The notes beneath the pieces are model-generated. The model worked only from the letters and a program-made list of their open reading frames with translations, ran no database searches and was not told the origin of the DNA. From Candidatus Bipolaricaulia bacterium (GTDB taxonomy: Bacteria > Bipolaricaulota > Bipolaricaulia > JBHIAT01): a stretch of DNA of 33,587 bases. The position numbers and the translations under genes are program-made. Positions 1-29,381 of this stretch are shown here, piece after piece; positions within the stretch are counted from its first letter, which is position 1, and every line of letters begins with the position of its first letter. The stretch covers positions 1-33,587 of the forward strand of contig JBHIAT010000019.1 of NCBI GenBank assembly GCA_046758705.1, in the 5' to 3' direction.

Positions 1-3000
1 GTCTATAACTTATCCTTTGCCGCGCGCCTCAACGCTCCCCTCGACGTCGCCGCACTTGAGCAAAGCCTCAACGAAATCGTCAACCGCCACGAAGTCCTTC
101 GCACCACCTTCGCCACCGTGGACGGACAACCCGTTCAGGTTATTGCTCTAGACCTGATCCTGTCCCTGCCGGTGGTGGACCTGCGTGAGTTGCCCGAGAC
201 GGAGCAGGAGACCGAGCTCCGCCAGCTGGCCATCGAGGAAGCCCAGCGCCCTTTCGACCTCGCCCGAGGTCCGCTGTTACGGCTCATCCTGCTGCAGCTG
301 GGTGAGGAGGAGTACGTGGTGCTCTTCACCATGCACCACATCGTCTCCGACGCTTGGTCGATGGGGATATTCATCCGCGAGATCGCCGTACTCTACCAGG
401 CCTTCTCCACCGGACGTCCCTCGCCACTGCCTGAGCTACCCATTCAGTATGCCGACTTTGCCGTCTGGCAGCGCGAGCGGTTCCAGGACGAGATGCTTGA
501 GACCCAGCTGGCCTACTGGAAGCAGCAGTTGGGCGACCGTCTTCCTGTGCTGGAACTGCCCATCGATCGTCCCCGGCCCGCGATCCAAAGCCATCGAGGT
601 GCACACCACCCCCTGGCACTGCCTAAGTCTCTGACCGATTCACTCAACGCCCTGAGCCGTCAGGAGGAGGTCACCGTGTTCATGACCCTGCTCGCCGCGT
701 TCAAGGCGTTGCTCCATCGCTATACCGGCCAAGATGACATTGTTGTGGGCTCCCCGATCGCCGGTCACAATCGGGCCGAGATCGAGGAACTGATCGGATT
801 CTTCATCAATACGCTGGTGCTGCGCACCGACCTATCAGGGGATCCCACGTTCCGGGAACTATTGGGCCGGGTGCGCGAGGTGGCCTTGGGTGCCTATACC
901 CATCAGGATCTGCCGTTCGAGAGGCTGGTCGATGAACTGCAACCGGAACGGGATCTGAGCCTTAACCCCCTGTTTCAGGTGATGTTCCAGCTCCTCAATG
1001 CCCCGATGTCGACTCTGGAGCTTCCAGATCTGTCTCTGAACCCGCTAGAGATCGACAACGAAATAGCGAGGTTTGACCTGGCACTATTCATGATAGACGC
1101 GAACGGACTAAAGGGATGGATGGAGTACAACACCGATCTGTTCGATGCAGATACTATCGCTCAGATGGCCAGACACTTCCAGACGCTGCTGGAAGGCATC
1201 GTCGCCGATCCCGACCAGCGCCTGTCGGAGTTGCCGCTGTTGAGCGCAGCCGAATGCCATCAGTTGCTGGTGGAATGGAATGATACCCAAGCCGACTATC
1301 CCAAAGATGTGTGTATCCATCAACTGTTTGAAGCTCAGGTTGAGAGAACACCGGACGCTGTCGCCGTGGTGTATGAAGACCAACAACTGACCTACCGCGA
1401 GCTGAATCGGCGAGCGAACCAACTGGCGCACCACGTGAGGACACTGGGCGTGAGACCGGAAGTCAGCGTGGGCATGTTTATGGAACGTTCGCTGGAGCTG
1501 GTGGTGGGACTGCTGGGCATCCTCAAAGCCGGCGGAGTGTATGTGCCATTCGACCCCACCTATCCGAAGGCGCGGCTGACGCTTATGCTCGAGGACACCC
1601 AAGCATCAGTGCTGCTGACACAAGAGCGGCTCGTAAAACGCCTCCCTGAATGCAGTGCCAAGATTGTGTGCCTCGACACCGACTGGGGAGTCATCGCCCA
1701 GGAGAGTGTGGAAAACCCCATCAACGAGGTGACGACCGACCACCTCGCCTACGTGATCTACACCTCCGGATCGACGGGGACCCCTAAGGGTGTCATGGTG
1801 GAACACCGGGGGCTGCGTAACCTGGCTGAGGTCCAGGCACAGACCCTCGACGTGGCAGAGGGCAGCCGCGTCCTCCAGTTGGTCACCTTCAGTTTCGATG
1901 CCTCGCTGTGGGACGTTTTCATGGCGTTGTTGACGGGAGGAACGCTCTACGTGGCAACACCGGAGTCTCGGTTGCCGGGGCCGGCTTTGATCCAGCTGTT
2001 GCGCGATCAGGCCATCACGACCGTGACGCTTCCCCCATCGGTGCTGGCAGCCCTGCCCGCTGAGGAGCTTCCTGCGTTACGGACGATCACCGTCACAGGA
2101 GAGGCCTGCCCTGCTGACATCGTGGCGCGCTGGGCTCCGGGGCGTCGGTTCTTCAACGGCTATGGACCGACGGAAGCGACCATCGGTGCCACCATCGGTG
2201 CGTGCACCGCCGACGGTCGGAAGCCGACCATCGGCCGCCCGTTTGCCAACGTAAACATCTATCTTCTAGACGCTCACCTGCAACCGGTGCCCATCGGCGT
2301 GCCGGGCGAACTGTACATCGCTGGTGTAAGTCTAGCCCGGGGCTACCTCAACGACCCGGGGCTGACCGCCGAGAAGTTCATTCCGAACCCATTCAGCGAC
2401 GAGCCGGGCACACGGCTGTACAAGACCGGCGATCTGGCTCGTTACCGGCCGGACGGCCAGATCGAGTTTCTCGGTCGTACCGACCACCAGGTGAAGATTC
2501 GCGGGTTTCGCATCGAGCTGGAGGAGATCGAGGCGGTGCTGGATCAGCACCCGGCCGTGCGAGAAGCCGTTGTCCTCACCCGAGAGGATGCGCCCGGTGG
2601 CAAACGCCTGGTCGCCTATGTCGTTTCGAACCAAGAGCAGGCACCCATGCCCGGTGAACTACGCAGCTTCCTGAAAGAGAAGCTGCCCGATTATATGGTG
2701 CCGTCCGCGTTCGTGATGCTGGACGCCCTGCCACTGACGCCCAACGGCAAGGTCGATCGCCGGGCGCTTCCGAAGCCGGTTCGGATCAGTCCTGAGGTGG
2801 AGAAATCTTTCGTGGCTCCCCGCACACCTACAGAAGAGAAGCTGGCTGAGATCTGGGCTCAGGTCCTTGGCGTCGAGCAGGTGAGCATCCATGACAACTT
2901 CTTTGAACTCGGGGGGCATTCCTTGCTGATCCCACAGCTTATTCTTCGGGTGCGAGAAGCGTTTCAAATGGAGCTGCCGTTGCGCTATCTATTTGAGGCG

Positions 3001-4323
3001 CCCACCGTGGCCGAACTCGCCCAAGCCCTCGACGTTATCCAGCAGGAGGGTCCCCCCACAACCATTGACGCGATGACGACCACCGAACTGAGCGCTGAGG
3101 TCGCCCTCGATCCTATCATCCATCCTGAGGTGGTGCCTGATGAGGTTGAGCATGTCACCGAACCGGCTCATATCTTTTTGACCGGAGCCACAGGCTTTCT
3201 CGGAGCCTTTCTACTCCATGAACTCCTTCAGCAGACTCAAGCGGACATCTATTGCCTGATACGTTCCGCTAATGAGGAGCAAGGTAAGAAGAGACTCCAA
3301 GCAAACCTTGAATCCTACTCACTCTGGGATGAAAATCTAAGCTCCAGAATTATCCCGGTCGTAGGAGATCTGTCTCAGCCACTTCTAGGTCTTTCAGCTC
3401 ACCAGTTTCAAACGCTGGCCCGTAAGATCGATGTTATTTACCACAACGGTGCGTGGGTTAATTTGATCTATTCATACGATGTACTTAAGGCACCCAATGT
3501 TCTTGGAACCCAAGAAGTCCTTAGATTGGCAAGCCAAACCAAGGTGAAACCTGTACACTACGTCTCTACTATCGGCGTTTTCCCCTTAGGTCACTACCCC
3601 GATGACAAGGTCGTCCGAGAGCAAGACGACCTCGACCATGGCGGAGTTCTCTATGATGGCTACTCCCAGAGCAAATGGGTGGCTGAAAAGTTAGTCAGGC
3701 TTGCACGTTCGAGAGGGCTTCCTGTCTGTATCTATAGGCCAGGGCGGATAACCGGGCACAGCCAAACAGGTGCCTGGAATACCAATGACTTTCCCTGCAG
3801 AATGGTCAAAGGTTGTATCCAACTCGGCAGTATACCAGACCTCGACATAGGGGAAGCAGAGGTGGACTTGACTCCTGTGAACTACGTGAGCAGAGCCATC
3901 GTCCATCTATCGAAGCAAACAGAGTTGATAGGAAAGACCTTTCACTTGGTTAACCCTCATCCGCTTCACCCGGACAAGGTTGTTGCCTGGATCCGCTCTT
4001 TGGGTCTCCCGATTCGCCAAATTTCGTACGATGATTGGAGAGAGGAGCTGATCAATCTCCCTGAGAGTTCCATGGAAAATGCTTTGCTTCCCCTTTTGCC
4101 TCTTTTGATTGAACAGATATCCGAAGAACGGATCAAGAGACCGCAGTTCGACTGCCAAAACACGTTCGATGAGCTTGAAGGCACTTCCATCACCTGTCCA
4201 CCCGTAGATGCTGAATTGCTCAACACCTATTTTTCCTACTTCATTCGGAGCGGGTTCCTAGAGGTGCCGCAGCCGGACGGTGAGCTTCGACACTCCTCGA
4301 AAGAGACACCGGAAGCAAAATGA
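1..4323 (+). CDS. NRPS terminal module, C-A-T-R (thioester reductase); 5' end lies outside the window
   Basis: Frame is open from base 1 (VYNLSFAARLNAPLDVAALEQSLNEIVNRHEVLRTTF, typical C-domain start), so the start at 118 is an artefact. C motif HHIVSDAWS; A motifs YTSGSTGTPKG, NGYGPTE, YKTGDL, PNGKVDR; T motif LGGHSLL; R motifs TGATGFLG and YSQSKW. Confidence 0.97.
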   Translation, partial: VYNLSFAARLNAPLDVAALEQSLNEIVNRHEVLRTTFATVDGQPVQVIALDLILSLPVVDLRELPETEQETELRQLAIEEAQRPFDLARGPLLRLILLQLGEEEYVVLFTMHHIVSDAWSMGIFIREIAVLYQAFSTGRPSPLPELPIQYADFAVWQRERFQDEMLETQLAYWKQQLGDRLPVLELPIDRPRPAIQSHRGAHHPLALPKSLTDSLNALSRQEEVTVFMTLLAAFKALLHRYTGQDDIVVGSPIAGHNRAEIEELIGFFINTLVLRTDLSGDPTFRELLGRVREVALGAYTHQDLPFERLVDELQPERDLSLNPLFQVMFQLLNAPMSTLELPDLSLNPLEIDNEIARFDLALFMIDANGLKGWMEYNTDLFDADTIAQMARHFQTLLEGIVADPDQRLSELPLLSAAECHQLLVEWNDTQADYPKDVCIHQLFEAQVERTPDAVAVVYEDQQLTYRELNRRANQLAHHVRTLGVRPEVSVGMFMERSLELVVGLLGILKAGGVYVPFDPTYPKARLTLMLEDTQASVLLTQERLVKRLPECSAKIVCLDTDWGVIAQESVENPINEVTTDHLAYVIYTSGSTGTPKGVMVEHRGLRNLAEVQAQTLDVAEGSRVLQLVTFSFDASLWDVFMALLTGGTLYVATPESRLPGPALIQLLRDQAITTVTLPPSVLAALPAEELPALRTITVTGEACPADIVARWAPGRRFFNGYGPTEATIGATIGACTADGRKPTIGRPFANVNIYLLDAHLQPVPIGVPGELYIAGVSLARGYLNDPGLTAEKFIPNPFSDEPGTRLYKTGDLARYRPDGQIEFLGRTDHQVKIRGFRIELEEIEAVLDQHPAVREAVVLTREDAPGGKRLVAYVVSNQEQAPMPGELRSFLKEKLPDYMVPSAFVMLDALPLTPNGKVDRRALPKPVRISPEVEKSFVAPRTPTEEKLAEIWAQVLGVEQVSIHDNFFELGGHSLLIPQLILRVREAFQMELPLRYLFEAPTVAELAQALDVIQQEGPPTTIDAMTTTELSAEVALDPIIHPEVVPDEVEHVTEPAHIFLTGATGFLGAFLLHELLQQTQADIYCLIRSANEEQGKKRLQANLESYSLWDENLSSRIIPVVGDLSQPLLGLSAHQFQTLARKIDVIYHNGAWVNLIYSYDVLKAPNVLGTQEVLRLASQTKVKPVHYVSTIGVFPLGHYPDDKVVREQDDLDHGGVLYDGYSQSKWVAEKLVRLARSRGLPVCIYRPGRITGHSQTGAWNTNDFPCRMVKGCIQLGSIPDLDIGEAEVDLTPVNYVSRAIVHLSKQTELIGKTFHLVNPHPLHPDKVVAWIRSLGLPIRQISYDDWREELINLPESSMENALLPLLPLLIEQISEERIKRPQFDCQNTFDELEGTSITCPPVDAELLNTYFSYFIRSGFLEVPQPDGELRHSSKETPEAK

Positions 4324-4410
4324 ATAGGGACAGCAAGGAAGACCATATGATCTATAAGGTCGTCGTCAATCACGAAGAGCAGTACTCGATCTGGTCCGCT
4401 GACCGGGGAG
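4320..4410 (+). pseudogene. mbtH: MbtH-like protein, N-terminal half only
   Basis: MNRDSKEDHMIYKVVVNHEEQYSIWSADR matches the MbtH N-terminal motif (NxEEQYSxW); ATGA overlap with the NRPS stop. The PxGW and WTDMRP motifs are absent from the forward frames that follow. Confidence 0.88.
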
Positions 4411-4575
4411 CGGCAGTCGACCTCAAGTGGCTACTTCACGTCCGTCGCCTTCGACGAGCAGGGACGTCCCACACCAGTCCCGCCGGTCATCCCGGAGACC
4501 GACGACGAGAAACGCCAGTACGAGGAGGCGCGGGCGCGGCGCGAGGAGAAGTTGCGACAGCGGGAGATGCAATAA
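4399..4575 (+). pseudogene. C-terminal fragment of a hotdog-fold acyl-CoA thioesterase (YciA-like)
   Basis: Unlisted frame reads LTGERQSTSSGYFTSVAFDEQGRPTPVPPVIPETDDEKRQYEEARARREEKLRQREMQ*, resembling the family tail (TGE..YxTFVAxDExGRPxxVP.xxPET..E..R). No start codon upstream in this frame. Confidence 0.75.
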
Positions 4576-4596
4576 GATAAGCCTTGCAATGAAATC

Positions 4597-4683: not shown

Positions 4684-4687
4684 TCTC

Positions 4688-5433: not shown

Positions 5434-8400
5434 ATGATGACCATCTTTTCTAATCGTTCTGAATCTACCTTCGAGCTTTCCACATTGGTCGATCTCCTCC
5501 GCTGGAGAGCACTCCACCAGCCTGACCAACAGGCCTATACCTTCTTGGTGGATGGAGAAACAGAAGAGGTTAGTTTGACCTATGGAGAGTTAGACCGCCA
5601 GGCCCGGGCCATCGGCGCTTGGCTTCAGAGCTTGGAGATAACCGGGGAGCGTGTACTGCTGCTCTGTCCTCCAGGTCTTGAATACATCGCCGCGTTTTTC
5701 GGTTGCCTGTACGCCGGGGTTGTTGCCGTCCCGACTTACCCGTCCGGGCTCAACCGGCTCATGCCTCGCCTCCAGGCGATTGTGGCAGATGCGCAGGCGA
5801 GGGTGGTACTCACCACCACAGCCATCCTGTCCAGCGTGAAGCGTCGGTTCGCTCATGCTCCAGATCTGGAGACCCTACGATGGCTCGCCATCGACAATGT
5901 CCCCGCCGGTGTGGAGGCGGATTGGCAAGAACCTGCGGTAACCCGCGATACTCTGGTCTTCCTCCAGTACACCTCTGGTTCTACGAGCATGCCCAAGGGG
6001 GGCATGGTAAGCTATGGCAACATGATGCACAACCTGGCTCTCATTCGCCATGGGTTTAAGATTAACCCCGATAATCCTGAAGACGTAGGGGTTTTTTGGC
6101 TGCCCATCTACCATGACATGGGGCTCATCGGAGGTATACTGGAGCCCATGTATATCGGAAGGCCGGCCATCTTGATGTCACCGCTCTCCTTTGTGCAGCG
6201 CCCCGTGCGCTGGCTACAGGCGATTGCCCGTTACAAAGGCACCATTAGCGGTGCACCTAACTTCGCATACGAACTGTGCGTTGACAATATCACGCCTGAA
6301 CAGCGAGCGACCCTCGACCTGAGCAGTTGGGACGTGGCCTTCTGCGGTGCTGAGCCCATTCGCTTGGAAACCTTGGACCGGTTCGCGGCGACTTTCGAGC
6401 CCTGTGGTTTCCGCCGGGAGGCCTTCTACCCTTGCTACGGACTCGCTGAGGCAACCGTGATGGCTTCCGGTGGCCTGGGGCCCGCCCTGCCGGTCGTCCG
6501 CACTGTCCAGAGAGCAGCGCTTGAAATCAACCGGGTGGTCGAAGCTTCTGAGAGGGATGAGGGTACCCAGACGCTTGTGGGCTGCGGTCAGGCCCTGCTG
6601 GACCAAAAGATCCTCATCGTTCACCCCGAAAAGTTGACCCCGTGCTTGCCCGATCAAGTGGGCGAGATCTGGGTATCGAGCCCCAGCGTTGCCCAGGGTT
6701 ACTGGAACCGCCCTGAGGAGATGGAACGGACTTTCAACGCGTACCTATCCGATACGGGTGAGGGCCCGTTTCTACGCACCGGAGATCTGGGGTTTGTTTA
6801 CGATGGGGAGCTATTCGTTACCGGTCGACTCAAGGACTTGATCATCATCCGGGGCCACAACCATTACCCTCAGGACATCGAACTGACGGTGGAACGGAGT
6901 CATCCAGCACTGCGGCCAGGCTGCGGTGCAGCGTTTTCAGTGGGTGCAGCCGGTGAAGAGCGGCTGGTGATCGTTCAGGAGGTCGAGCGTCATGACCGGA
7001 ATCCAGACATAGATAAGGTGGTTGGGGTCATCCGTCAGGCGGTGGCGGAAGATCACGAACTGCAAGTTTACGCCGTGGTCCTGATCAAGTACGGGAGCAT
7101 CCCTAAGACCTCCAGCGGCAAGATCCAGCGGCACGCCTGTCGGGCCGGGTTCCTGGAGGGGAGCCTGAATGTGGTGGGAGCGTGGCGGGCAGCCGTAGCC
7201 CCACGCTCGGTGAGTGATGCACAGGACGCCACTGTAGCTGAGGCAAGTTCCAGAGAGCCGGCGGACGTGCCGAGAAGGAGCGCGGCGGACATCGAAGCCT
7301 GGTTGGTGTCACAGATCTCGGGGCGGTTGGGCATGGATCCTGACGATATAGACATCCACCAGCCCTTCACTCACTACGGCCTGGACTCAAAGCACGCGGT
7401 GCGCTTGGCTGGAGAGCTGGGAGCCTGGCTTGGACGTCAGCTTTCTCCCACTCTGGCGTACGAGTACCCCACTATCGAGGCACTCGCCCAGTATCTGGCT
7501 GAGGACCCCGACCCCACCGTCTCAGCGTCAACCCCTGAGGACCGCGTAGACGGGGGAACGGAAAAAGAGCCGATCGCCATCATCGGGATTGGCTGTCGTT
7601 TCCCCGGCGCCAACGGTCCGGATGCTTTCTGGCAGCTTCTACAAGATGGGATGGATGCCATCACCGAGGTTCCGGCGGATCGGTGGGATATCGATGCCTT
7701 CTATGATCCCACTCCGGATGCACTTGGCAAAATGAATACCCGCTGGGGCAGCTTTTTGGAGCAGGTGGATCAGTTCGACCCCCACTTCTTCGGGATCTCT
7801 CCTCGGGAAGCCGCTCGCATCGATCCTCAGCAACGGATCTTGCTGGAGGTGGCTTGGGAGGCGTTAGAGGATGGTGGGCAGGTGCCGGATCGCCTGGCCG
7901 GCACACGGACTGGTGTGTTCATCGGCATCTCGACAAACGATTATGGCCGGATTCAGTTGAGCGACCCCGACCTCATCGACGCTTATGCAGGCACGGGCAA
8001 TGCTTTGAGCATTGCGGCCAATCGCCTCTCCTACCTGTTTGATCTCCAGGGGCCGAGTGCGGCGGTGGACACGGCCTGCTCCTCATCGCTCGTCGCGGTC
8101 CACCTGGCCTGCTGTAGCCTATGGAACGGGGAATCCACCCTGGCTCTGGCTGGGGGCGTAAACTTGATCCTATCGCCAGCCATTACCATTAATTTCACGA
8201 AAGCCGGGGTCATGGCTCCGGATGGTCGCTGTAAAGCCTTCGATGCTCGAGCCAACGGCTACGTTCGGGGTGAGGGGGCCGGTCTCATCGTCCTCAAACC
8301 CCTATCGAGGGCTCTGGCCGACGACGATCCGATTTATGCGGTGATCCGAGGCAGCGCGGTCAACCAGGACGGGCGCACCAATGGGCTCATGGCTCCCAGC

Positions 8401-11400
8401 CGGCAGGCCCAGGAGGCCGTGCTGCGGGAAGCCTACCGCCGGGCTGGGGTCTCACCGGGCCAGGTCCAGTATATCGAGGCCCACGGTACGGGCACATTCC
8501 TGGGCGATCCGATCGAGGCAAAGGCCCTAGGAACGGTGCTCGCCATTGACCGCCCCCCAGGATGCGACTGCACCATAGGTTCGGTCAAAACCAACATCGG
8601 ACACCTGGAGGCAGCCGCTGGCATTGCTGGTCTGATCAAGGTCGCGCTGTCACTCAAACACCGAGCGATCCCGCCGAGCCTCCACTTCCAGAAGCCAAAT
8701 CCTCACATTCCTTTTAACGAGCTCCCCCTGCGCGTTCAGCAGATCTTGGCCCCGTGGCCCGAAGCGTCCAGCCCGGCCCTGGCCGGGGTGAGCTCTTTCG
8801 GTTTTGGTGGAACCAACACGCACATGGTTCTGGAGGAGGTCCCCCGAACCCCTGAGGTTCATCAACACGAACAAAAGCCTGCATCCGGGCGGACGCACCT
8901 GCTACCGCTGTCCGCGCGCAGCCCAGAGGCCCTCCAGTCCCTTGCTCGGGCTTACCAGGACCTTCTGACGGCCGAGGGATCCGGATTCGTTGCATCGTTG
9001 CAGGACGTCTGTTACACTGCCAGCTTGCGGCGAAGTCATCACGACCATCGCTTGGCCCTCGTGGCTCACTCTCAGGAGGAATTCATCGAGCACCTGGAGG
9101 CCTTTCTAAACGGAGAGTCTCGCCCTGGCATGTCTTCCGGTCGCAAAGTTCCCGGCCACCGGCGAAAGCTCGTCTTCGTGTTTTCTGGGCAAGGGTCTCA
9201 ATGGTATGGCATGGGGCGAGAGCTTTTAGAGCAGGAATCCGTCTTTCGGACGACTCTGGAGCACTGTGACCAGGTGATGCGTCAGTATGTGGATTGGTCT
9301 TTGCTGGAGGAACTCACCGCCGATGAAGCGCACTCTCGCTTGGACGAAATCGACGTCATCCAGCCCGCTCTGTTTGCGATCCAGGTGGCCCTGGTGGCCC
9401 TGTGGCGCTCCCGGGGCATCGAGCCCGATGCGGTGGTGGGTCACAGCATGGGAGAAGTGGCAGCGGCTCACGTAGCTGGGGCGTTGAGCCTGGAAGATGC
9501 GGTCAAGATCATTTGCCGTCGGAGCCAGCTGTTAAAGCGGACGAGCGGGCAAGGAAGTATGGCTGCCGTCGAGCTTTCCTTAGAGCAGGCTCAACGCGCT
9601 CTGGCCGGCTACGAGGATCGTGTGTCTATTGCTGTCAGCAACAGTCCTACGTCAACTGTGCTGTCAGGAGATCCAGCAACGCTGGAAGAGGTTCTGGATA
9701 CGTTACAGCGGCAAGAGATCTTCTGCCGTCTGGTGCAGGTGGACGTTGCCGCTCACAGCCCCCAAATCGATCCTCTAGGCGCTGATTTGTTACAAGCCTT
9801 GGAAGAATTACAGTCCCAGCCTGCATCCCTGCCAATCTACTCGACTGTGACAGGCGAAGCCAGCGACGGTCTGGAGTTCGATGCCACCTACTGGGTGCGG
9901 AATCTAAAAGAGCCAGTGCTCTTTTCAGCAGCGGTTCAACAATTGCTGGAAAGTGATCATGACATTTTTCTGGAAATCAGTCCTCATCCCATCCTGTTGA
10001 AAGCGATCCAGCAAGGGCTGCAGCATCTTGACCAGGAAGACATCGTGCTCCCTTCCCTGCGACGTGACGAAGAGGAGCGTGCCGTGATGCTGGGGTCGCT
10101 CGGTGCGCTCTACACCCTGGGACACCCGGTGGACTGGAGCCGGCTCTATCCATCCGGAGGCCGGTGTGTTCGACTCCCGCCCTATCCTTGGCAACGAGAG
10201 CGTTGCTGGATAGAGGGCCAAGGCCGAGTCCGGAGGCGATTCTTTGCCAAAGGTAGCGGAAGTCGCACATCGGGTCATCCGCTCTTGGGTCGGTGCTTGA
10301 GATCGGCCGTTCACTCGGGAACGTACTTCTGGGAGATGGATCTTGGTATTGATTCGTTCCCCTTCCTGGACGACCATCGCGTCCAGGGAGCGGTTGTGCT
10401 GCCAGTAACAGCCTATGTGGAGATGGTCCTGGCTGCTTCTGAGGAGATCTTCGGACCAGGGCCTCATGTTTTGGAGAAGGTGGCCTTCAAAAAGGCGCTC
10501 TTTCTCCCAGAGGATGACACTCAGACAGTCCAGTTGGTTATCTCTGCTGAAATGCCTGGAACGGCCTCGTTTCAGTTCTTCAGCTTCCAAGCAGGCAATG
10601 CAGAACAGCAGACATCATGGACGCTGCATGCGATCGGAACAATCCGTCTCGGTCAGGCAGATGCAGATCTGGAAGCATCACCGGTGGAGCATGCCTTACC
10701 CGAGGAGATCCAAGCTCGGTGCTTGGAGGTCATCTCAGGCGCAGAGCACTATCAGGCCATGCAGGAGCGCGGGTTTGGTCTCAGCTTCCAGGGTGTGGAG
10801 CAGATTTGGCGTCAGGATGGAGAAGCCATCGGCCGGCTGCGTCTTTCGGAAACGGTAAAGTCGGAAGCAGGTGCCTATCAGATTCATCCCGCTCTCCTGG
10901 ACGCCTGTTTGCACGTCTTGGCGGCCACCTTGCCCCGGGAAGACTCCCAAATCGCTGAAGGGGACACCTACCTGCCCGTGGATCTAGATAGCCTGCGGGT
11001 TTACGATCGTCCTCGCTCCGACATGGGGCTGTGGAGCCACGCGCTTCTCCGGCCGGGTGTAGAGGCAAACGCGAACACACTTGAGGGAGACGTGTTCCTG
11101 CTGGATGACAATGGGCAGTTGGTGCTAAAGATACTGGGTCTGAGCTTCCAGCGCCTCGACCGTGATACGCAACGAGCCATGCGGAAGGATATGAGCGACT
11201 GGCTCTATGAGATCCAGTGGGAACCCAAGACACGCCCGAAGCGGAACCACGCCTTGGACTCCCCTCCATCAGACCAACGAGGCCGTTGGCTCATTTTCAC
11301 CGACAGCCATGGCGTTGGACGGACGCTGAGGTCGCTGCTGGAAGCGCGCGGCGAGAGCTGTATCTTGGTCTCTCCGGGCGAAGCCTGTGAACACGTAGAT

Positions 11401-13191
11401 AGAGGGTGCTTCCGGATCCGCCCGGAGCAACCGGAAGACATGCGGCAGCTCCTCGAGGTTGTCTTGGGGTCGGATCAGCCTGCCTGCCGCGGAGTTGTAC
11501 ACCTCTGGAGCCTCGATGCTCCTCCTCCGGAACAGACCTCAGTGGCTTCTCTAGAGACAGCACAGACCCTAGGTTGCGGCAGCGTCCTGCACTTGATCCA
11601 GGAGCTGGCTCGAACGGAATGGCGCAAGTCGTCTCGCTTGTGGCTGGTCACGCGAGGGACCCAGCCGGTGGAGGAGGAACCTGTTTCCCTAGGGGTGGCT
11701 CAGACACCCCTTTGGGGATTCGGTCGCACCATTGCCCAAGAACATCCCGCCCTCTGGGGAGGATTGGTGGATTTGGACCCTGAAGCCCCTGTACGTGATG
11801 CGGCTGCCCTGTTATTGGAGGAAATTTGGAGTCCGGACGGAGAGGATCAGCTCGCTTTCCGTCAAGGGCAACGGTATGTTGCCCGCTTGGTGCGCAAGCG
11901 CCAATCCGCCGGGCAGACGCTTCCTCCCCGGTGGCGGCCTGATAGCAGCTATCTGATCACCGGAGGATTAGGAGATCTCGGCCGCCAAGTTGCCCGCTGG
12001 ATGGTGGAACAAGGGGCTCGGCGGCTGATTCTCTTGGGACGCACAAAACTTCCGCCGCGTTCCAGTTGGAACCAGGTAGAAAAAGGAAGTCGCCTGGCCC
12101 ATCAAATCGCTACCATTCGTGAACTGGAGACCCTGGGCGCCAGTGTACATCTCGCCTCAGTCGATGTAGCGGATGAGGTACAGCTGATCTCTTTCCTGGA
12201 AGCGTTTCACCGTGAGGGTTGGCCACCGATCCGTGGCGTGATGCACTTAGCGGGAGTGGCACAGGGCAAAACGCTGCTGAAGCTTGATATCACCTCACTG
12301 AACGCGGTTTTGCGGCCCAAGGTGGTGGGAGGCTGGCTTCTATACCGCTTCCTTGGAGATGATTCCCTGGATTTCTTCGTTCTTTTCTCTTCAGCTGCTT
12401 CCCTGTTAGGCGTGCTTGGCCAGGGAGCGGCAAACTATGCCGCTGCAAACGCGTTCCTGGACGGTCTGGTCCATCACCGACAGGCTCAGGGACGACCGGC
12501 CCTGAGTATCAATTGGGGTCCCTGGGCTGAGGTAGGTATGGTGGCCCGACATGAACAGGCTGGGCGTCTTGCACTCCGAGGAATAGAAAGTATCATGCCC
12601 GACCAAGGACTGAAAGCACTAGGACGAATGCTCGGAGAAGGATCGACCCAGATTGCAATTATGCCTGTCAACTGGCCGCAGTTGTGCCATTCTTTCCCAG
12701 TGGCCAGTAAATCACCTCTGCTTTCCCATCTGGTCAGTGAAGAAGTTGATTCCTTCAATTCGAGAGAAAGACCAAGCCTGACCCGAGACGTCCTTCTGGA
12801 TGCGGAACCAGGAGAACGTCAGCAACTGCTGCAGCCCTATCTTCGTGACCAAGTGGCCAGGGTGCTGGGACTGTCTGCGTCCAAGCTGGACGTACAGCAG
12901 CCCCTCAACAACCTGGGTCTCGACTCCTTGATGGCCGTCGAGCTGAAGAACCGGATCGAGATCGACTTAGGGGTGGTCGTGCCCGTGGTGAACTTCCTCC
13001 AGGGATTTAGCATCGTTCAGTTCACAAAGCAGATGCTCGATCAACTGACTGCAGTGGCCTCCACTCCATCGGCGCCTCTCGTAGGCCGAGGAGATGCAGA
13101 ACAGCTGTTGGCACAACTTGATCAACTTTCGGATGAGGAAGTGGATTCATTGCTGAGCGATGTGTTAGCTGAAGAGGAGGTTGATGAATGA
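5434..13191 (+). CDS. Fatty acyl-AMP ligase / type I PKS: FAAL-ACP-KS-AT-DH-KR-ACP
   Basis: FAAL FLQYTSGST, WLPIYHDMGLIG, PKTSSGKIQR; ACP GLDS; KS DTACSSS, HGTGT, NIGHLE; AT GHSMG, VAAHS; DH HRVQGAVVLP, HPALLD; KR TGGLGDLG, YAAAN; ACP LGLDSLMA; acidic docking tail LSDEEVDSLL. Confidence 0.97.
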   Translation: MMTIFSNRSESTFELSTLVDLLRWRALHQPDQQAYTFLVDGETEEVSLTYGELDRQARAIGAWLQSLEITGERVLLLCPPGLEYIAAFFGCLYAGVVAVPTYPSGLNRLMPRLQAIVADAQARVVLTTTAILSSVKRRFAHAPDLETLRWLAIDNVPAGVEADWQEPAVTRDTLVFLQYTSGSTSMPKGGMVSYGNMMHNLALIRHGFKINPDNPEDVGVFWLPIYHDMGLIGGILEPMYIGRPAILMSPLSFVQRPVRWLQAIARYKGTISGAPNFAYELCVDNITPEQRATLDLSSWDVAFCGAEPIRLETLDRFAATFEPCGFRREAFYPCYGLAEATVMASGGLGPALPVVRTVQRAALEINRVVEASERDEGTQTLVGCGQALLDQKILIVHPEKLTPCLPDQVGEIWVSSPSVAQGYWNRPEEMERTFNAYLSDTGEGPFLRTGDLGFVYDGELFVTGRLKDLIIIRGHNHYPQDIELTVERSHPALRPGCGAAFSVGAAGEERLVIVQEVERHDRNPDIDKVVGVIRQAVAEDHELQVYAVVLIKYGSIPKTSSGKIQRHACRAGFLEGSLNVVGAWRAAVAPRSVSDAQDATVAEASSREPADVPRRSAADIEAWLVSQISGRLGMDPDDIDIHQPFTHYGLDSKHAVRLAGELGAWLGRQLSPTLAYEYPTIEALAQYLAEDPDPTVSASTPEDRVDGGTEKEPIAIIGIGCRFPGANGPDAFWQLLQDGMDAITEVPADRWDIDAFYDPTPDALGKMNTRWGSFLEQVDQFDPHFFGISPREAARIDPQQRILLEVAWEALEDGGQVPDRLAGTRTGVFIGISTNDYGRIQLSDPDLIDAYAGTGNALSIAANRLSYLFDLQGPSAAVDTACSSSLVAVHLACCSLWNGESTLALAGGVNLILSPAITINFTKAGVMAPDGRCKAFDARANGYVRGEGAGLIVLKPLSRALADDDPIYAVIRGSAVNQDGRTNGLMAPSRQAQEAVLREAYRRAGVSPGQVQYIEAHGTGTFLGDPIEAKALGTVLAIDRPPGCDCTIGSVKTNIGHLEAAAGIAGLIKVALSLKHRAIPPSLHFQKPNPHIPFNELPLRVQQILAPWPEASSPALAGVSSFGFGGTNTHMVLEEVPRTPEVHQHEQKPASGRTHLLPLSARSPEALQSLARAYQDLLTAEGSGFVASLQDVCYTASLRRSHHDHRLALVAHSQEEFIEHLEAFLNGESRPGMSSGRKVPGHRRKLVFVFSGQGSQWYGMGRELLEQESVFRTTLEHCDQVMRQYVDWSLLEELTADEAHSRLDEIDVIQPALFAIQVALVALWRSRGIEPDAVVGHSMGEVAAAHVAGALSLEDAVKIICRRSQLLKRTSGQGSMAAVELSLEQAQRALAGYEDRVSIAVSNSPTSTVLSGDPATLEEVLDTLQRQEIFCRLVQVDVAAHSPQIDPLGADLLQALEELQSQPASLPIYSTVTGEASDGLEFDATYWVRNLKEPVLFSAAVQQLLESDHDIFLEISPHPILLKAIQQGLQHLDQEDIVLPSLRRDEEERAVMLGSLGALYTLGHPVDWSRLYPSGGRCVRLPPYPWQRERCWIEGQGRVRRRFFAKGSGSRTSGHPLLGRCLRSAVHSGTYFWEMDLGIDSFPFLDDHRVQGAVVLPVTAYVEMVLAASEEIFGPGPHVLEKVAFKKALFLPEDDTQTVQLVISAEMPGTASFQFFSFQAGNAEQQTSWTLHAIGTIRLGQADADLEASPVEHALPEEIQARCLEVISGAEHYQAMQERGFGLSFQGVEQIWRQDGEAIGRLRLSETVKSEAGAYQIHPALLDACLHVLAATLPREDSQIAEGDTYLPVDLDSLRVYDRPRSDMGLWSHALLRPGVEANANTLEGDVFLLDDNGQLVLKILGLSFQRLDRDTQRAMRKDMSDWLYEIQWEPKTRPKRNHALDSPPSDQRGRWLIFTDSHGVGRTLRSLLEARGESCILVSPGEACEHVDRGCFRIRPEQPEDMRQLLEVVLGSDQPACRGVVHLWSLDAPPPEQTSVASLETAQTLGCGSVLHLIQELARTEWRKSSRLWLVTRGTQPVEEEPVSLGVAQTPLWGFGRTIAQEHPALWGGLVDLDPEAPVRDAAALLLEEIWSPDGEDQLAFRQGQRYVARLVRKRQSAGQTLPPRWRPDSSYLITGGLGDLGRQVARWMVEQGARRLILLGRTKLPPRSSWNQVEKGSRLAHQIATIRELETLGASVHLASVDVADEVQLISFLEAFHREGWPPIRGVMHLAGVAQGKTLLKLDITSLNAVLRPKVVGGWLLYRFLGDDSLDFFVLFSSAASLLGVLGQGAANYAAANAFLDGLVHHRQAQGRPALSINWGPWAEVGMVARHEQAGRLALRGIESIMPDQGLKALGRMLGEGSTQIAIMPVNWPQLCHSFPVASKSPLLSHLVSEEVDSFNSRERPSLTRDVLLDAEPGERQQLLQPYLRDQVARVLGLSASKLDVQQPLNNLGLDSLMAVELKNRIEIDLGVVVPVVNFLQGFSIVQFTKQMLDQLTAVASTPSAPLVGRGDAEQLLAQLDQLSDEEVDSLLSDVLAEEEVDE

Positions 13192-16100
13192 GTCATACTT
13201 CTAACCGTATCGATGATCTTTCGCCGGAGGAAAAGCGTGCGCTTCTTGCACAGCTACTTCGGGAAAAGGCGAGCGAGTCCAAATCTTTGTACCCTCTCTC
13301 CCACGGGCAGCGGGCCTTGTGGTTCCTACACCAGCTCACACCAGAGAGCGCGGCTTACAACGTCAGTTTTGCGGCACGCATCCGCTCTGATCTAGACATT
13401 CCGGCCTTGCGACGTGCGTTTCAGACCTTGGTCGATCGACATGCCTCTCTACGGACGACCTTCACCGCCCCCCACGGGGAACCTGTTCAGCGAGTCCACA
13501 AGCACGTCGAGGTCTGCTTTCACCAGGAAGATGCTTCGACCTGGAGCGAGACGTTCCTGAACGACCGTCTGGTCGAGGAGGCGCATCATCCCTTTGATCT
13601 GGAACGAGGTCCCCTGCTGCGGGTGAAACTGTTCACTCGATCGGCAAACGACCACATCCTTTTGCTGATGGTACACCACATCGCGATCGATTTCTGGTCT
13701 CTTATGGTGCTCACGAACGAGCTCGTTATGCTGTACCTCGCGGAGAAGGCCGGCACACAGGCGTCTCTACCGCCTGTTGAACTACAATACACGGATTACG
13801 TTCGTTGGCAGGCCGAAATACTCGCGGGCCCGGAAGGTGAGTGGCTCTGGACCTACTGGCAGAGACAGCTGGCCGGTGAGTTGCCCGTGCTGCACCTTCC
13901 GACCGATCGGCCGCGGCCGCCGTTCCAGACTGATCGCGGCACCTCACACGTATTCAATCTGGATGCGAAACTGGTCCGACAGCTCAAGAGACTGGCAAAG
14001 GCTAACGGGGCTACCCTTTACATGCTCCTTCTGGCAGTCTTCCAGGTGTTGCTTCATCGATATAGCGGTCAAGAAGACCTTCTGGTGGGTTCCCTCACGA
14101 TCGGTAGGAGCCAGGCCCGTTTCGCTAACCTGGTGGGCTACTTTGCCGAGCCCATTGTCCTGAGAGCCAACCTCGCCGGAAACCCTACCTTCATCGAGTT
14201 TCTGGCACAAGTGCACCAAACGGTGCTGGATGCTCTGGCCCACCAGGATTATCCGTTCGCCTTATTGGTCGAACGACTCCAGCCGCCCCGGAATCCCAGC
14301 CACTCACCGCTGTTTCAGGTCATGTTTAACATGCCGAATGCACACCGCCTTGAGGAACAGGTGGCATCACAGTCCATGTTGGGGCTGAGTGAAACGGGGG
14401 TTCGGATAGATCTGGGAGAGCTCGAGCTGGAACTCCTCAACGTGGAGCAGCGGGTGGCGTTGCTCGATTTGCTGCTGGCGATGGTCGAGTTGGGTGAATC
14501 ACTCTACGCCTCGTTGCAATACAACACAGACCTGTTTGATGCAGCCACCATCGTCCGGATGGTGGGACATTTCCAGGCCTTGCTGGAGGGTATCGTTGCC
14601 AATCCCGAGCAGCAACTCACGGACTTGCCGCTGTTGACCGAAGCCGAACGGCATCAGCTGCTCGTCGAGTGGAATAACACCCCGACAGACTATCCCCAAG
14701 ATTCGTGTATTCATCAGCTCTTTGAGGCCCAGGTGGAGCAGACGCCAGACGCTGCTGTTGCGGCGGTCTTCGAAGACAAGCAGCTGAGCTACCAGCAGCT
14801 GAACCGGCGGGCCAACCGTTTGGCCAGGCTCCTCGTGGAGCAAGGCGTCGGTCCGGATGTCGTCGTGGCGTTGCTCGCCGAGCGCGGTATCGACTTGCTA
14901 ACCGCGATGATGGCGGTTTTCAAGGCCGGTGGAGCTTACCTCCCTCTCGATCCACGCGATCCAGCCAAACGACTCTCCCAGGTGCTGGACCAGAGTGGGA
15001 CTCCTCTGGTTCTCGCCGCGAGCGAGTTCGTGCCTGCTCTCTCGCAAGCGCTAGCGAGCATGCCTTTAGGAAAACGACCACGGGTCTTAAACATCAAGGA
15101 ACTCCTACAGCAAGAGCAGGCTGCAGAAAACCTGCCTCTTCGCTGTACGCCGAGTCATCTTGCTTACGTGATCTACACCTCTGGCTCGACAGGAGTACCG
15201 AAGGGAGCGATGGTCGAGCATAGGGGGATGCTCAATCATTTGTATGCAAAGATCTTAGATCTGAAGCTGACGGATGCAGATATTGTTGCCCAAACCGCTT
15301 CCCAGTGTTTTGACATCTCGATGTGGCAGTTTTTAGCGGCTCTGCTTGTCGGTGGACGTGTTCACATCTTCAACGATGAGGTCGCCCATGATCCCTCACA
15401 ACTGCTTGAGCAGGTCGAGCGCGAAGGGATTTCGATTCTTGAAACCGTGCCGTCACTGCTGCGGGCGATGTTTGATGAGGTAGTGCTTCACGAACCTGCC
15501 CGCCTCGATCTGTCGGGGCTGCGCTGGTTGATCCTTACCGGCGAAGCGTTACCACCGGAGCTGTGTCGCCAGTGGCTAAGCTGCTACCCGAATGTACCCC
15601 TGTTGAATGCGTATGGCCCTACCGAGTGCTCCGATGATGTAACCCACTACCCCATCTACCGGCCTCCGGCAGCAGATGTTATTCATATGCCGATTGGCCA
15701 TCCCATAGCCAATATGCGGCTATACGTGCTGGACCGCCAGTTACAGCCTGTGCCAATTGGGGTTGCCGGAGAACTGTGCGTTAGTGGTATCGGCGTTGGT
15801 CGCGGCTATCTGAACGATGCGAAACGAACAGCCGAGGTCTTTGTCCTGGATCCATTTGCTCAGGAACCAGGGGGACGCCTCTACAAAACCGGCGACCTGG
15901 CCCGCTACCTGCCGGATGGCAACATCGAATTCCTGGGCCGCATCGACCACCAGGTGAAGATTCGGGGTTTTCGCGTCGAGCTGGGGGAGATTGAGTCGAT
16001 CCTGAGCCAATACCCAGCTGTACAGGAGACCGTGGTCGTGGCCCGGGAGGACGTACCCAGCGACACGCGGCTGGTGGCCTATGTAGTCCCTAACCAGGAG

Positions 16101-16550
16101 CAGGCCCCCACGATTAGTGAACTGCGTAGTTTCGTTCATGAGAAGCTGCCTGACTACATGCTGCCCTCTGCCTTCGTGCTTCTGGACGCCCTGCCACTGA
16201 CCCCCCATGGCAAGGTAGACCGCCGTGCGCTTCCCGCGCCCGATCGGGCCAGGCCCGAGTTGGAAAGAACCTTTGTCGCTCCTCGTACCCCCGTCGAGGA
16301 GGTACTAGCAGGAATCTGGGCCGAACTGCTTGGTTTTGAGCGGGTCGGCGTTTGCGATAATTTCTTCGACCTCGGTGGCCATTCCCTTGCAGCAATCAAG
16401 CTCATCTCCCGTGTGTGCGAAGCGTTCCAGGTGAAGCTGCCCCTGCGCGGCTTCTTTGAGACACCCACCGTGACCGGGCTCGCCCAGGTCATCGACGTTG
16501 TCCGTCGGACGGGCCCCTCCGATCCCCGAAATCACGGATCTCAACACTGA
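13188..16550 (+). CDS. Single-module NRPS, C-A-T
   Basis: N-terminal docking DDLSPEEKRALLAQLL; C motif HHIAIDFWS; A motifs YTSGSTGVPKG, NAYGPTE, YKTGDL; T motif LGGHSLA; ATGA overlap with the PKS. Confidence 0.97.
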   Translation: MSHTSNRIDDLSPEEKRALLAQLLREKASESKSLYPLSHGQRALWFLHQLTPESAAYNVSFAARIRSDLDIPALRRAFQTLVDRHASLRTTFTAPHGEPVQRVHKHVEVCFHQEDASTWSETFLNDRLVEEAHHPFDLERGPLLRVKLFTRSANDHILLLMVHHIAIDFWSLMVLTNELVMLYLAEKAGTQASLPPVELQYTDYVRWQAEILAGPEGEWLWTYWQRQLAGELPVLHLPTDRPRPPFQTDRGTSHVFNLDAKLVRQLKRLAKANGATLYMLLLAVFQVLLHRYSGQEDLLVGSLTIGRSQARFANLVGYFAEPIVLRANLAGNPTFIEFLAQVHQTVLDALAHQDYPFALLVERLQPPRNPSHSPLFQVMFNMPNAHRLEEQVASQSMLGLSETGVRIDLGELELELLNVEQRVALLDLLLAMVELGESLYASLQYNTDLFDAATIVRMVGHFQALLEGIVANPEQQLTDLPLLTEAERHQLLVEWNNTPTDYPQDSCIHQLFEAQVEQTPDAAVAAVFEDKQLSYQQLNRRANRLARLLVEQGVGPDVVVALLAERGIDLLTAMMAVFKAGGAYLPLDPRDPAKRLSQVLDQSGTPLVLAASEFVPALSQALASMPLGKRPRVLNIKELLQQEQAAENLPLRCTPSHLAYVIYTSGSTGVPKGAMVEHRGMLNHLYAKILDLKLTDADIVAQTASQCFDISMWQFLAALLVGGRVHIFNDEVAHDPSQLLEQVEREGISILETVPSLLRAMFDEVVLHEPARLDLSGLRWLILTGEALPPELCRQWLSCYPNVPLLNAYGPTECSDDVTHYPIYRPPAADVIHMPIGHPIANMRLYVLDRQLQPVPIGVAGELCVSGIGVGRGYLNDAKRTAEVFVLDPFAQEPGGRLYKTGDLARYLPDGNIEFLGRIDHQVKIRGFRVELGEIESILSQYPAVQETVVVAREDVPSDTRLVAYVVPNQEQAPTISELRSFVHEKLPDYMLPSAFVLLDALPLTPHGKVDRRALPAPDRARPELERTFVAPRTPVEEVLAGIWAELLGFERVGVCDNFFDLGGHSLAAIKLISRVCEAFQVKLPLRGFFETPTVTGLAQVIDVVRRTGPSDPRNHGSQH

Positions 16551-17332
16551 TGATGACCACGCCGACCCTCCACTCGTGGATTACATATCCGAAGCTGAAT
16601 ACACAGGCGAGCCTGCGTCTGTTCTGCTTCCCGTACGCCGGGGGCGGTGCCTCAATCTTTCACACATGGTCGGACGACTTGCCATCGGATATAGAGGTCT
16701 GCCCCGTCCAACTCCCCGGTCGGGAAAACCGGCTGATGGAACCGCCGGTTACCCGACTCTCGTCCCTGGTTCAGACGCTAGCCCAAGCCCTCCATCCGTA
16801 TCTGAACATCCCGTTCGCTTTTTTCGGCCACAGTATGGGTGCGCTGATAAGCTTCGAACTCGCCCGTCAACTCCGCAGACGGAATGATCTCAGCCCGGTT
16901 CACCTGTTCGTTTCCGGTCATCATGCCCCCCAGATACCGAATCCAAATTCGCCCATCCATCGACTGCCCGAATCCACGTTCGTAAAGGCATTGCGTCGTC
17001 TCGATGGCACACCGGAGTCGGTTCTTCAAAACACTGAGCTGATGGAGCTTTTATTGCCTGTCCTGCGAGCAGATTTTGCGATTTGCGAGACGTATGTCTA
17101 TTCAACCGAGGATCCACTCGATTGTCCTATCTCCGCTTTCGGAGGCCTGCAGGACCGTGAGGTAAGCTATGACGATCTCGCAGCTTGGTGTGACCAAACT
17201 CATCGCTCGTTCGCGATTCGAACCTTTCCCGGCAACCATTTCTTCCTGCAGAGCGCCCGAGTGCCTGTTTTGCGGGCTATATCCCAAGATCTGACGCGGT
17301 TTCTGAGAATAACCGGAGGTCAACACTCATGA
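16550..17332 (+). CDS. Type II thioesterase (GrsT-like)
   Basis: LFCFPYAGGGAS, QLPGRENR, GHSMG nucleophile, LRADF, PGNHFF. Confidence 0.95.
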   Translation: MMTTPTLHSWITYPKLNTQASLRLFCFPYAGGGASIFHTWSDDLPSDIEVCPVQLPGRENRLMEPPVTRLSSLVQTLAQALHPYLNIPFAFFGHSMGALISFELARQLRRRNDLSPVHLFVSGHHAPQIPNPNSPIHRLPESTFVKALRRLDGTPESVLQNTELMELLLPVLRADFAICETYVYSTEDPLDCPISAFGGLQDREVSYDDLAAWCDQTHRSFAIRTFPGNHFFLQSARVPVLRAISQDLTRFLRITGGQHS

Positions 17333-18117
17333 CAGCTGTTGATCGTCTGTGGGGTCCTCCGCCGGCAAACTTGGCGTTGTCGAACGATGATATTCATGTC
17401 TGGCGTGCTTCTCTGGATCTGACAGCATCGCGCGTACAAAGTCTGCAGCACACCCTCACCCCAGACGAATTGGACCGGGCCGAGCGTTTTTACTTCCAGA
17501 AAGACCGGGAACACTTCATTGTGGCTCGCGGGCTGCTCAGGGCCATCCTCGGCCGCTATCTGAACGTGGAACCCAGTCAACCGCGCTTTTGCTACAGCCC
17601 CTATGGAAAACCGACCCTGGTCACCACGTCTGGCAAGAATACACTAAGCTTTAACGTGTCCCACTCCTACGGGCTTGCCCTCTATGCCGTAACTCACGGC
17701 CGGAAGATTGGCATCGACCTCGAACGCATTCGCGCGGATTTCGCATGTGAACAGATAGCAGAGCGATTCTTCTCGCCCCAAGAGAACGTCGTGCTTCGTG
17801 CACTCCCTGCAAGTATGAAGCACGAGGCATTTTTCACCTGTTGGACTCGCAAGGAGGCCTACGTAAAGGCTAAGAGCGAAGGGCTTTCGCTTCCCTTAGA
17901 CCAATTTGACGTTTCACTGGCTCCAGGAGAGCCGGCAGCGCTGTTGAGCACGAACTGGGATCCCCAAGAAGCTTCCCGTTGGTCGTTACAAGCACTGACT
18001 CCCGGCCCCGGTTACGTGGCCGCTCTTGCCGTAGAGGGATATCACTGGCAGCTGAAGTGCTGGCAATGGCCAGGGTCAGTGAGTGACGAGTTGACAGGCC
18101 GCGCCCCGGGCCCTTGA
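17329..18117 (+). CDS. Sfp-type 4'-phosphopantetheinyl transferase
   Basis: YGKP, FNVSHS, IGIDLE, WTRKEAYVKA motifs. Confidence 0.96.
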   Translation: MTAVDRLWGPPPANLALSNDDIHVWRASLDLTASRVQSLQHTLTPDELDRAERFYFQKDREHFIVARGLLRAILGRYLNVEPSQPRFCYSPYGKPTLVTTSGKNTLSFNVSHSYGLALYAVTHGRKIGIDLERIRADFACEQIAERFFSPQENVVLRALPASMKHEAFFTCWTRKEAYVKAKSEGLSLPLDQFDVSLAPGEPAALLSTNWDPQEASRWSLQALTPGPGYVAALAVEGYHWQLKCWQWPGSVSDELTGRAPGP

Positions 18118-19708: not shown

Positions 19709-19719
19709 TCGGATGGGCA

Positions 19720-22683: not shown

Positions 22684-22687
22684 GCCG

Positions 22688-29374: not shown

Positions 29375-29381
29375 AGTTTCA

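Follow-up and report, generated by a model that had tools for sequence, protein, structure and literature searches.

Which amino acid stands at the end of a lipopeptide when the last adenylation pocket of its assembly line differs from a kynurenine (Kyn) code by one residue, and the genome shows no enzyme for making kynurenine? The question is raised by a contig from Candidatus Bipolaricaulia bacterium (GenBank assembly GCA_046758705.1, contig JBHIAT010000019.1), which we analyzed over its whole length (33,587 nucleotides, the window from here on). It opens inside a nonribosomal peptide synthetase (NRPS) gene whose frame (1-4323, + strand) is open from the first base of the contig, and encodes in order a partial condensation (C) domain, an adenylation (A) domain, a thiolation (T) domain, and a terminal thioester reductase (R) domain. 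The best reading of this gene is as the terminal module of a hybrid fatty-acid/polyketide synthase (PKS)/NRPS line. Its A domain has, by its code, a rare pocket of the tryptophan/kynurenine (Trp/Kyn) type, and the evidence assembled below leans by a little towards L-Trp as the residue loaded. An initial annotation of the sequence had proposed a Kyn-type A domain coupled to reductive release, for a span (1315-4323) that by Pfam domain bounds is exactly A-T-R.

The adenylation pocket and its kin

The ten code residues are D633, A634, W637, T676, T697, T699, G720, I728, G729, and K917, or DAWTTTGIGK, with codons that start at 1897, 1900, 1909, 2026, 2089, 2095, 2158, 2182, 2185, and 2749. They were read in two ways. 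One is a motif register in the numbering of GrsA (1AMU), which uses FD-x-x-x-W at A4, the T before LPP, T-x-T-GE, N-G-YGPTE-x-x-I-G, and the GK of A10. The other takes the columns of MAFFT alignments, in which the domain stands beside 195 A domains from 77 genome loci, 242 from 120 database proteins, and 23 from metagenome loci. Both yield DAWTTTGIGK, which is also the code given in the initial annotation; the motifs it had named (FDASLW, ITTVTLPP, TITVTGE, and NGYGPTEATIG) are all present, and its K lies in PNGK. We judge the register to be sound because, among the other A domains, the same columns return DAFWLGGTFK, a listed code, together with many further codes matching those that we take to be the textbook codes for Ser, Thr, Gly, Pro, and Phe. 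DAFWLGGTFK is listed as a Val code (Baltz 2021, PMC9113097).

What does this code mean? DAWTTTGVGK is the Kyn code of DptD, of daptomycin synthetase, and of its homolog in S. viridis (a predicted Tar10), so the daptomycin code given in the initial annotation is indeed in print, and DAWTTTGVAK is the Kyn code of Tar10, of taromycin, from Saccharomonospora sp. CNQ490 (PMC9113097). The window code agrees with the first at 9/10 positions, the one change being conservative (V330I), and with the second at 8/10. The Trp code of Qui18-A1, from quinomycin, is DAWTVTGVGK (PARAS preprint, 10.1101/2025.01.08.631717); here too the window code agrees at 8/10, with T for V at 299 and I for V at 330, and this Trp code is itself only one position apart from the Kyn code of DptD. 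Judged by these codes, the pocket family DAWT-x-TG-x-GK accommodates Trp as well as the ring-opened product of Trp. The published codes part the two substrates at position 299 only, which is Thr in the Kyn domains and Val in the Trp domain, and the window has Thr there (T697), as do all of the published Kyn codes. From the code alone, Kyn would be the better call than Trp, though not a safe one: since the same pocket family includes a published Trp code, the code by itself cannot part them.

The pocket is rare. We scanned DNA for the pattern [T/V/I/A]299-T301-G322-[I/V/M]330-G331, and found it in one of the 184 genomes of the phylum (in the window only), in 0 of 401 cyanobacterial genomes, and in 0 of 5 genomes from other phyla. 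A metagenome collection gave 14 stretches, eight of which hold full codes of the pocket family: DAWTTTGVGK in four domains (L086, L088, L089, and L092), DAWTVTGIGK in two (L085 and L097), and DAWTVTGVGK (L087) and DAWTITGVGK (L091) in one each. Neither an R domain after the module nor a tryptophan dioxygenase (TDO) was found for any of the eight in their stored flanks, which are short (L085 ends at the end of its A domain, L089 shortly past its carrier domains), so that this null result says little about context. The closest of these relatives, L097 (60% identity, DAWTVTGIGK), is a C-A-T module at 4326-9403 (- strand). Its neighbours are a PhyH-type dioxygenase and an "iron-containing redox enzyme" (PF14518), then an ABC exporter as well as a type II thioesterase, and the modules upstream of it include one with the code DIWEITADDK, the code of the second A domain of the window.

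Is the likeness of the pockets one of descent? The window domain is 54-60% identical to the eight relatives. A FastTree tree of 177 domains joins the nine with SH-like support of 95. A careful search (39 rows, with the code columns removed) places the nine on one side of a branch, with an ultrafast bootstrap (UFBoot) of 77, an SH-aLRT of 95, and presence in 74% of the bootstrap trees. There are points on the other side. The pairwise nearest A domains are instead of the cyanobacterial Tyr/Phe type, at no more than 67% identity among the matches listed. A quick IQ-TREE search with the ten code columns removed set the window domain outside the pocket clade. The group was defined by the pocket itself, its branch has moderate support, and the trees were made without the published DptD, Tar10, and Qui18 domains, so that their same-code members are metagenomic and unlabelled. 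Of these, we treat the quick free search as a failed search and not as evidence, because a tree constrained to hold the nine together is 25.4 log-likelihood units better than it, and is not rejected by the approximately unbiased (AU) test (p 0.765). Moderate evidence thus argues for kinship of the window domain with the Trp/Kyn-type pocket group, moderate because the group was picked by its pocket. Among the nine, the window domain branches off first and nests in neither the Thr299 nor the Val299 subgroup, and for this reason the tree leaves the substrate undecided.

In a search of 5.8 billion proteins, in which the best 8,000 candidates by shared words were scored and the best 120 compared, the best A domain among the matches listed is 67% identical to that of the window. 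The closest A-T-R relatives, from 185,579 species genomes, are 62% identical.

The assembly line, its host, and its precursors

The domains of the C-A-T-R frame match Pfam and NCBIfam models far over their cut-offs. For the R domain, the score with the thioester reductase model TIGR01746 is 402.9 bits (cut-off 213), and the best solved match is MxaA-R (PDB 4u7w, E 6.4e-119, aa 24-391 of the query piece). Aligned to MxaA-R, it keeps TGATGFLG (aa 1061-1068), YVST (1187), and YSQSK (1221-1225), that is, the NADPH-binding motif (TGxxGxxG) and the Thr/Tyr/Lys catalytic residues; and the carrier domain before it has the serine of GGxS, as GGHSL. The T domain and the intact R domain of the initial annotation thus hold up well. 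We know of no sequence rule that separates two-electron reductases, which give an aldehyde, from four-electron ones, which give an alcohol. The release product would be one or the other, and closeness to MxaA-R leans us slightly towards the alcohol.

The C domain match begins at position 27 of the Pfam model, from which we take the domain to be cut by the contig start. It continues a C-domain start found at the 3' end of another contig of the same assembly, C20 (the window is contig C19). C20 reads, in order, FAAL-ACP (FAAL being a fatty acyl-AMP ligase), KS-AT-DH-ER-KR-ACP, a lone C domain, a second KS-AT-DH-ER-KR-ACP, a C-A-T module with the code DVWHISLIDK, which we take to be a Ser code, and the start of the next C domain. 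The lone C domain is free-standing (488 aa, C20 20986-22449, which is L081 986-2449), and between two fully reducing PKS modules it occupies an unusual site. The final frame of C20 runs to a complete codon at its end (...LWFLDQLMPDSP), and C19 opens with VYNLSFAARL...; a sister C domain reads ...LDQLDPSHPVYNESG, so that no residue is missing at the join and the frame is kept. In addition, a 10,050-base contig of sequencing run X2 spans base 1 of the window. At 2402-2672 of its record it carries a piece 79% like window 2228-2498, which by arithmetic is the expected place of C20 32142-32412 if the two contigs abut. That C20 abuts the window start without a gap is well supported. Given the join, the synthetase is bimodular, C-A(Ser)-T-C-A(DAWTTTGIGK)-T-R, with about 2,603 aa, the PKS and NRPS genes take about 40 kb over the two contigs, and the cluster with its flanks can be read over about 66 kb. 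Pieces of further modules are found on two more fragments, C275 and C292. FAAL-ACP, PKS modules, NRPS, and a phosphopantetheinyl transferase all stand in the locus, as in a FAAL-initiated PKS/NRPS lipopeptide cluster.

From this order of domains, the proposed route is as follows. The FAAL would activate a fatty acid, and the two fully reducing PKS modules would add two fully reduced C2 units. The acyl chain would N-acylate Ser, and the acyl-Ser would be condensed with the aromatic residue loaded by the DAWTTTGIGK domain. NAD(P)H-dependent reduction would then release the acyl-dipeptidyl thioester as a C-terminal amino aldehyde, which a second reduction would turn into the amino alcohol. What leaves the line would then be an N-acyl-Ser-Trp(-like) compound, either an aldehyde or an alcohol.

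The host genome is a metagenome-assembled genome (MAG) of 3.70 Mb in 319 contigs, 93.9% complete and with 4.7% contamination, in which the window is an entire contig. It is the sole member of its family, and its 3.7 Mb put it among the largest of the 184 species genomes in the phylum, all of one class and most of 1-3 Mb. Condensation domains occur in 1 of the 41 phylum genomes sampled, this one alone, and the same search finds an NRPS in 0 of its 40 sampled relatives. With no second Condensation-domain carrier among those sampled, the cluster is an outlier in a lineage of 1-3 Mb genomes, and was probably acquired from outside. The genome was also searched for phycobilisome genes, and has none. 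Three sequencing runs carry this DNA, all of one study and labelled hydrothermal vent metagenome; two of them may be its source, and therefore there is no independent habitat evidence beyond that label.

Does this genome have a route to kynurenine? For the fungal pathway, deformylation of N-formylkynurenine is described as spontaneous (PMC7448278), in which case a dioxygenase is the sole enzyme that needs to be found. A search with PF03301 on the six-frame translation of the genome gives no TDO candidate (the control was positive in 2 of 14 known genomes), and tblastn of the genome with three TDOs, one each from Polyangiaceae, Acidobacteria, and Scytonema genomes (three phyla), has best E-values of 2.5-3.3. 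No candidate for TDO or for indoleamine dioxygenase (IDO) is found among the 21 open reading frames (ORFs) of the window and the 15 of C20, C275, and C292, and both are absent from the cluster and flanks over those 66 kb. Two genes of the cyclase family, to which kynurenine formamidase belongs, are present in the genome, one beside a methyltransferase and an aminotransferase, the other beside a molybdenum hydroxylase and an SDR, with no oxygenase beside either. The check for a formamidase that the initial annotation asked for does find members of the family, in contexts unrelated to the kynurenine pathway. The same annotation had said that its proposal would fall if the genome has no route to kynurenine, and, within the limits of the MAG, none is seen.

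The supply of Trp is close at hand. Directly after the phosphopantetheinyl transferase of the cluster comes a trpB2-trpEGDCFBA operon, which holds the only trpG, trpD, trpC, and trpF of the assembly; a second trpB/trpA pair is on contig C115, and a TrpE-like gene, 39% identical, on contig C12. Since these are sole copies, we read the operon as probably housekeeping, with no dedicated second copy; being adjoining, it may feed Trp to the A domain. It also ties the contig to the lineage, since its TrpD has orthologues of 57-61% identity in 6 of 20 phylum relatives. Besides the TrpB-like gene that heads it (TrpB2, 18350-19708, + strand, NF009057 at 737.6 bits), the operon has a canonical trpB, at 24014-25345.

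How do the candidate substrates compare? Our probabilities are a judgement, which started from the code by itself, with Kyn the clear favorite, Trp well behind it, and anything else somewhat further back, and which was then weighed against the missing TDO. L-Trp or a close analogue is the residue that we would back, if only by a little over an even chance, because cluster and genome show no Kyn-making route while the supply of Trp adjoins. That the A domain loads L-Kyn, and that the R domain releases an acyl-Ser-kynureninal which keeps its open form, undergoes reduction to the alcohol, or cyclises, its own aniline nitrogen attacking the aldehyde, to a seven-membered 1-benzazepine hemiaminal or imine, we hold to be unlikely. 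The likeness of the code to that of DptD and its S. viridis homolog, and to that of Tar10, with Thr299 throughout, speaks for it, as do the four metagenomic domains with exactly DAWTTTGVGK in the same clade, and the closure of Kyn to a benzazepine ring that is known in fungi, from terreazepine and nanangelenin (PMC7448278). Against it stand the TDO not found by either method, the lack of a dioxygenase gene across the cluster and its flanks, the null scan for IDO (though this had no positive control), the contexts of the cyclase-family genes, and the published Trp domain one position off the Kyn code. For daptomycin, a TDO (dptJ) is part of the cluster. The terreazepine cluster has its own IDO (PMC7448278). 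That these two Kyn clusters bring their own dioxygenase, where this one shows none, lowers the odds for Kyn. Of the Kyn-type A domain first proposed, then, the close match of the code stands, and the call of Kyn over Trp is weakened. Ring closure here would be chemically reasonable, by analogy, and it requires both Kyn loading and aldehyde release, each hypothetical in this system; a lipidated 1-benzazepine hemiaminal or imine closed through the aniline, with Kyn coming from an unrecognised indole-opening enzyme, from a gene missing from the MAG, or by uptake from the vent community, is in our view highly improbable. Also unlikely, though a little less so than Kyn, is a pocket likeness by convergence, with the A domain loading some other bulky or polar aromatic residue (a substituted Trp, Tyr or Phe, or a homo-aromatic residue). 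The closest A domains (62-67% identity, among the matches listed) carry the Tyr/Phe-type codes DASTIAAVCK and DAWTIAAVCK, none of the 195 + 242 neighbouring domains shares the window code, the quick free tree search had grouped the window domain with Tyr/Phe-type domains, and TrpB2 could in principle make Trp analogues. But the careful tree and the AU test favor kinship with the Trp/Kyn-type clade, the published indole-derived codes fit better (Phe/Tyr codes reach at most 7/10 among the 195 + 242 domains), and among the window genes there is no halogenase, hydroxylase, or methyltransferase for an aromatic residue.

Beyond the points about kinship given above, other observations weigh against a bimodular synthetase that ends in Trp. 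The nearest published code is the Kyn code at 9/10 including Thr299, where the Trp code has Val299. The IDO scan (PF01231) matched nothing in the genome, but its control matched nowhere either, so that this null is uninformative; and a TDO gene could lie unassembled or unbinned in a MAG of this fragmentation, completeness, and contamination. At the join, there are no exact end overlaps among C19, C20, C275, and C292, and over part of the upstream C domain the X2 contig and the MAG do not agree. In the contigs of X2 and of a further run, X3, the C domain of the upstream module is reported as identical to window 47-303, where C20 of the MAG is only about 75% identical; this mismatch could come from variation among strains, from gene conversion involving both C domains, or from a chimeric assembly. 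Finally, the contig could be mis-binned, and the cluster could come from another organism of the sample, such as a cyanobacterium-like or Chloroflexota donor, in which case the genome-wide absence of TDO would be uninformative. The contamination of the MAG, its being the one sampled genome of the phylum with Condensation domains, and the cyanobacterial origin of the best NRPS relatives would all fit such a scenario. We consider it very improbable: the contig holds the only trpG, trpD, trpC, and trpF of the assembly, its TrpD has those orthologues in the phylum, its G+C is even all along (0.54-0.63), and the cluster itself, on both C19 and C20, is still without a TDO. L-Trp, or a close analogue, remains our preferred substrate.

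The rest of the window

The features of the window are collected in Table 1. The MbtH-like ORF includes the motif NHEEQYSIW, and beyond it no frame continues the family. Because only the first 29 of the 53 model positions match, we read it as truncated or frameshifted: the partner protein may be cut short, or there may be a frameshift or an error in the assembly. A 236-aa ORF at 4635-5345 (- strand) was tried as a hidden tailoring gene, and rejected: it has no family match. It is overlapped by a 162-aa ORF (4688-5176, - strand), set between the two PKS/NRPS operons, which by eye seems to have a signal peptide and a glycine-rich make-up resembling a beta-barrel protein, and which has no Pfam match.

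Table 1. Domains of the terminal NRPS gene and the genes that follow it, in window coordinates
Feature	Position	Strand	Basis and remarks
Condensation domain, partial	1..1314	+	Pfam aa 2-423, model positions 27-456
Adenylation domain	1315..2760	+	Pfam AMP-binding aa 443-783, AMP-binding_C aa 842-917
Thiolation (PCP) domain, GGHSL phosphopantetheine site aa 971-975	2836..3030	+	Pfam PP-binding aa 946-1010
Terminal thioester reductase (R) domain	3169..4323	+	Pfam NAD_binding_4 aa 1060-1300; closest structure MxaA-R (4u7w)
MbtH-like ORF	4320..4580	+	Pfam MbtH 34.1 bits, model positions 1-29 of 53; overlaps NRPS stop codon (ATGA)
FAAL-ACP-KS-AT-DH-KR-ACP, second lipid-initiated line	5434..13191	+	Pfam
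C-A-T module, code DIWEITADDK	13188..16550	+	Pfam and MAFFT code columns
Free-standing thioesterase	16550..17332	+	Pfam
4'-phosphopantetheinyl transferase	17329..18117	+	Pfam
trpB2 (TrpB-like)-trpE-G-D-C-F-B-A operon	18350..26129	+	Pfam, NCBIfam

The code of the second A domain, DIWEITADDK, and its near variants have no match in a text search of the literature. The nearly identical codes DIWELTADDK and DIWEMTADDK recur across many cyanobacterial loci, in up to three successive modules, and codes of this kind are found in L036, L037, L062, L097, and Microcoleus loci. From its two Asp residues, our guess would be a cationic substrate. Further downstream, a 394-aa ORF without family match lies between two ATP-grasp genes of the RimK/LysX type that share 66% identity (27294-30321, + strand).

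Known systems and what the locus may add

DptD module 2 (Kyn13) and Tar10 are, like the window module, each the last module of a lipid-initiated line, with the pockets DAWTTTGVGK and DAWTTTGVAK against DAWTTTGIGK (PMC9113097). They end in a macrocyclising thioesterase, where the window module ends in a reductase, and the window host is not an actinomycete. Whereas the dpt cluster has its own TDO, none was found in the window cluster. Domains of the Qui18 type need MbtH-like partners, and an MbtH-like ORF follows the window NRPS gene. Qui18 is not a chain-terminating module; it is a loading didomain, free-standing, and supplies a beta-hydroxylation step. Its A1 domain loads Trp with a pocket that agrees with that of the window at 8/10, and has Val299 where the window has Thr299 (10.1101/2025.01.08.631717).

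Terminal reductases of the LtxA and the NcpB type are known from cyanobacteria (PMC3252866). LtxA, for lyngbyatoxin, is a bimodular NRPS in which a Trp-ending dipeptide is released by a terminal NADPH-dependent reductase (PMC3252866). It lacks a lipid/PKS front end, and N-methyl-Val comes first in its dipeptide, whereas the window line starts with FAAL and PKS. The LtxA product is released as an alcohol. In nostocyclopeptide, the terminal A-T-R of NcpB frees an aromatic or hydrophobic last residue as an aldehyde, which goes on to an imine (PMC3252866). That imine uses a free N-terminal amine, while the N-terminus of the window product would be expected to be acylated, and the pockets differ. 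Two Nostoc loci, L060 and L066, match the A-T-R of the window at 58% identity; their series of codes, DAFFLGVTFK, DVWHISLIDK, DVQFIAHVVK, and DAWTIGAVCK, presumably fits the residue order of NcpB, Ile-Ser-MePro-Phe/Leu. MxaA, for myxalamid, has cofactor and catalytic motifs in common with the window reductase, and yields an alcohol by two reductions; it reduces a polyketide-alanyl thioester, where the window R domain is predicted to reduce an acyl-dipeptidyl one. Finally, in the fungal TzpA and NanA, for terreazepine and nanangelenin, a terminal Kyn forms a 1-benzazepine by way of its aniline nitrogen (PMC7448278), the kind of ring closure that the initial annotation had proposed. There the ring forms by lactamisation on the thioester with no reductase, which the window module does have; the pocket code is described as quite unlike those of other Kyn-binding A domains; and the terreazepine cluster includes a dedicated IDO, with no counterpart found in the window cluster.

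All the parts of this locus are of known kinds, and it is the combination and the host that are new. The initial annotation knew of no bacterial module that joins Kyn loading to an R domain, and, judged by titles and the starts of abstracts, none of the papers found to mention both kynurenine and reductive release seems to describe one either. If Kyn is what is loaded, a benzazepine scaffold that is not known from bacteria would come within reach by reductive release, and a lipidated benzazepine, if true, would be the first bacterial and reductive counterpart of the terreazepine/nanangelenin ring of fungi.

If Trp is loaded, we have one more reductively released lipopeptide, distinctive still for its rare pocket and for its small-genome, uncultured vent lineage, seemingly without other NRPSs. 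By analogy, an N-acyl peptide aldehyde with an aromatic end would be expected to be a covalent inhibitor of chymotrypsin-like proteases or of proteasomes, and it would be worthwhile to test the acyl-Ser-Trp compound predicted here, as aldehyde or alcohol, for such inhibition. More generally, tools that assign substrates by the nearest known code would call a 9/10 match to a Kyn code kynurenine, even with a Trp domain only one residue off that same code. With that single-residue distance between the two codes, and a genome that shows no route to the precursor, Thr or Val at position 299 becomes a testable candidate for the switch between Trp and Kyn in this family of pockets.

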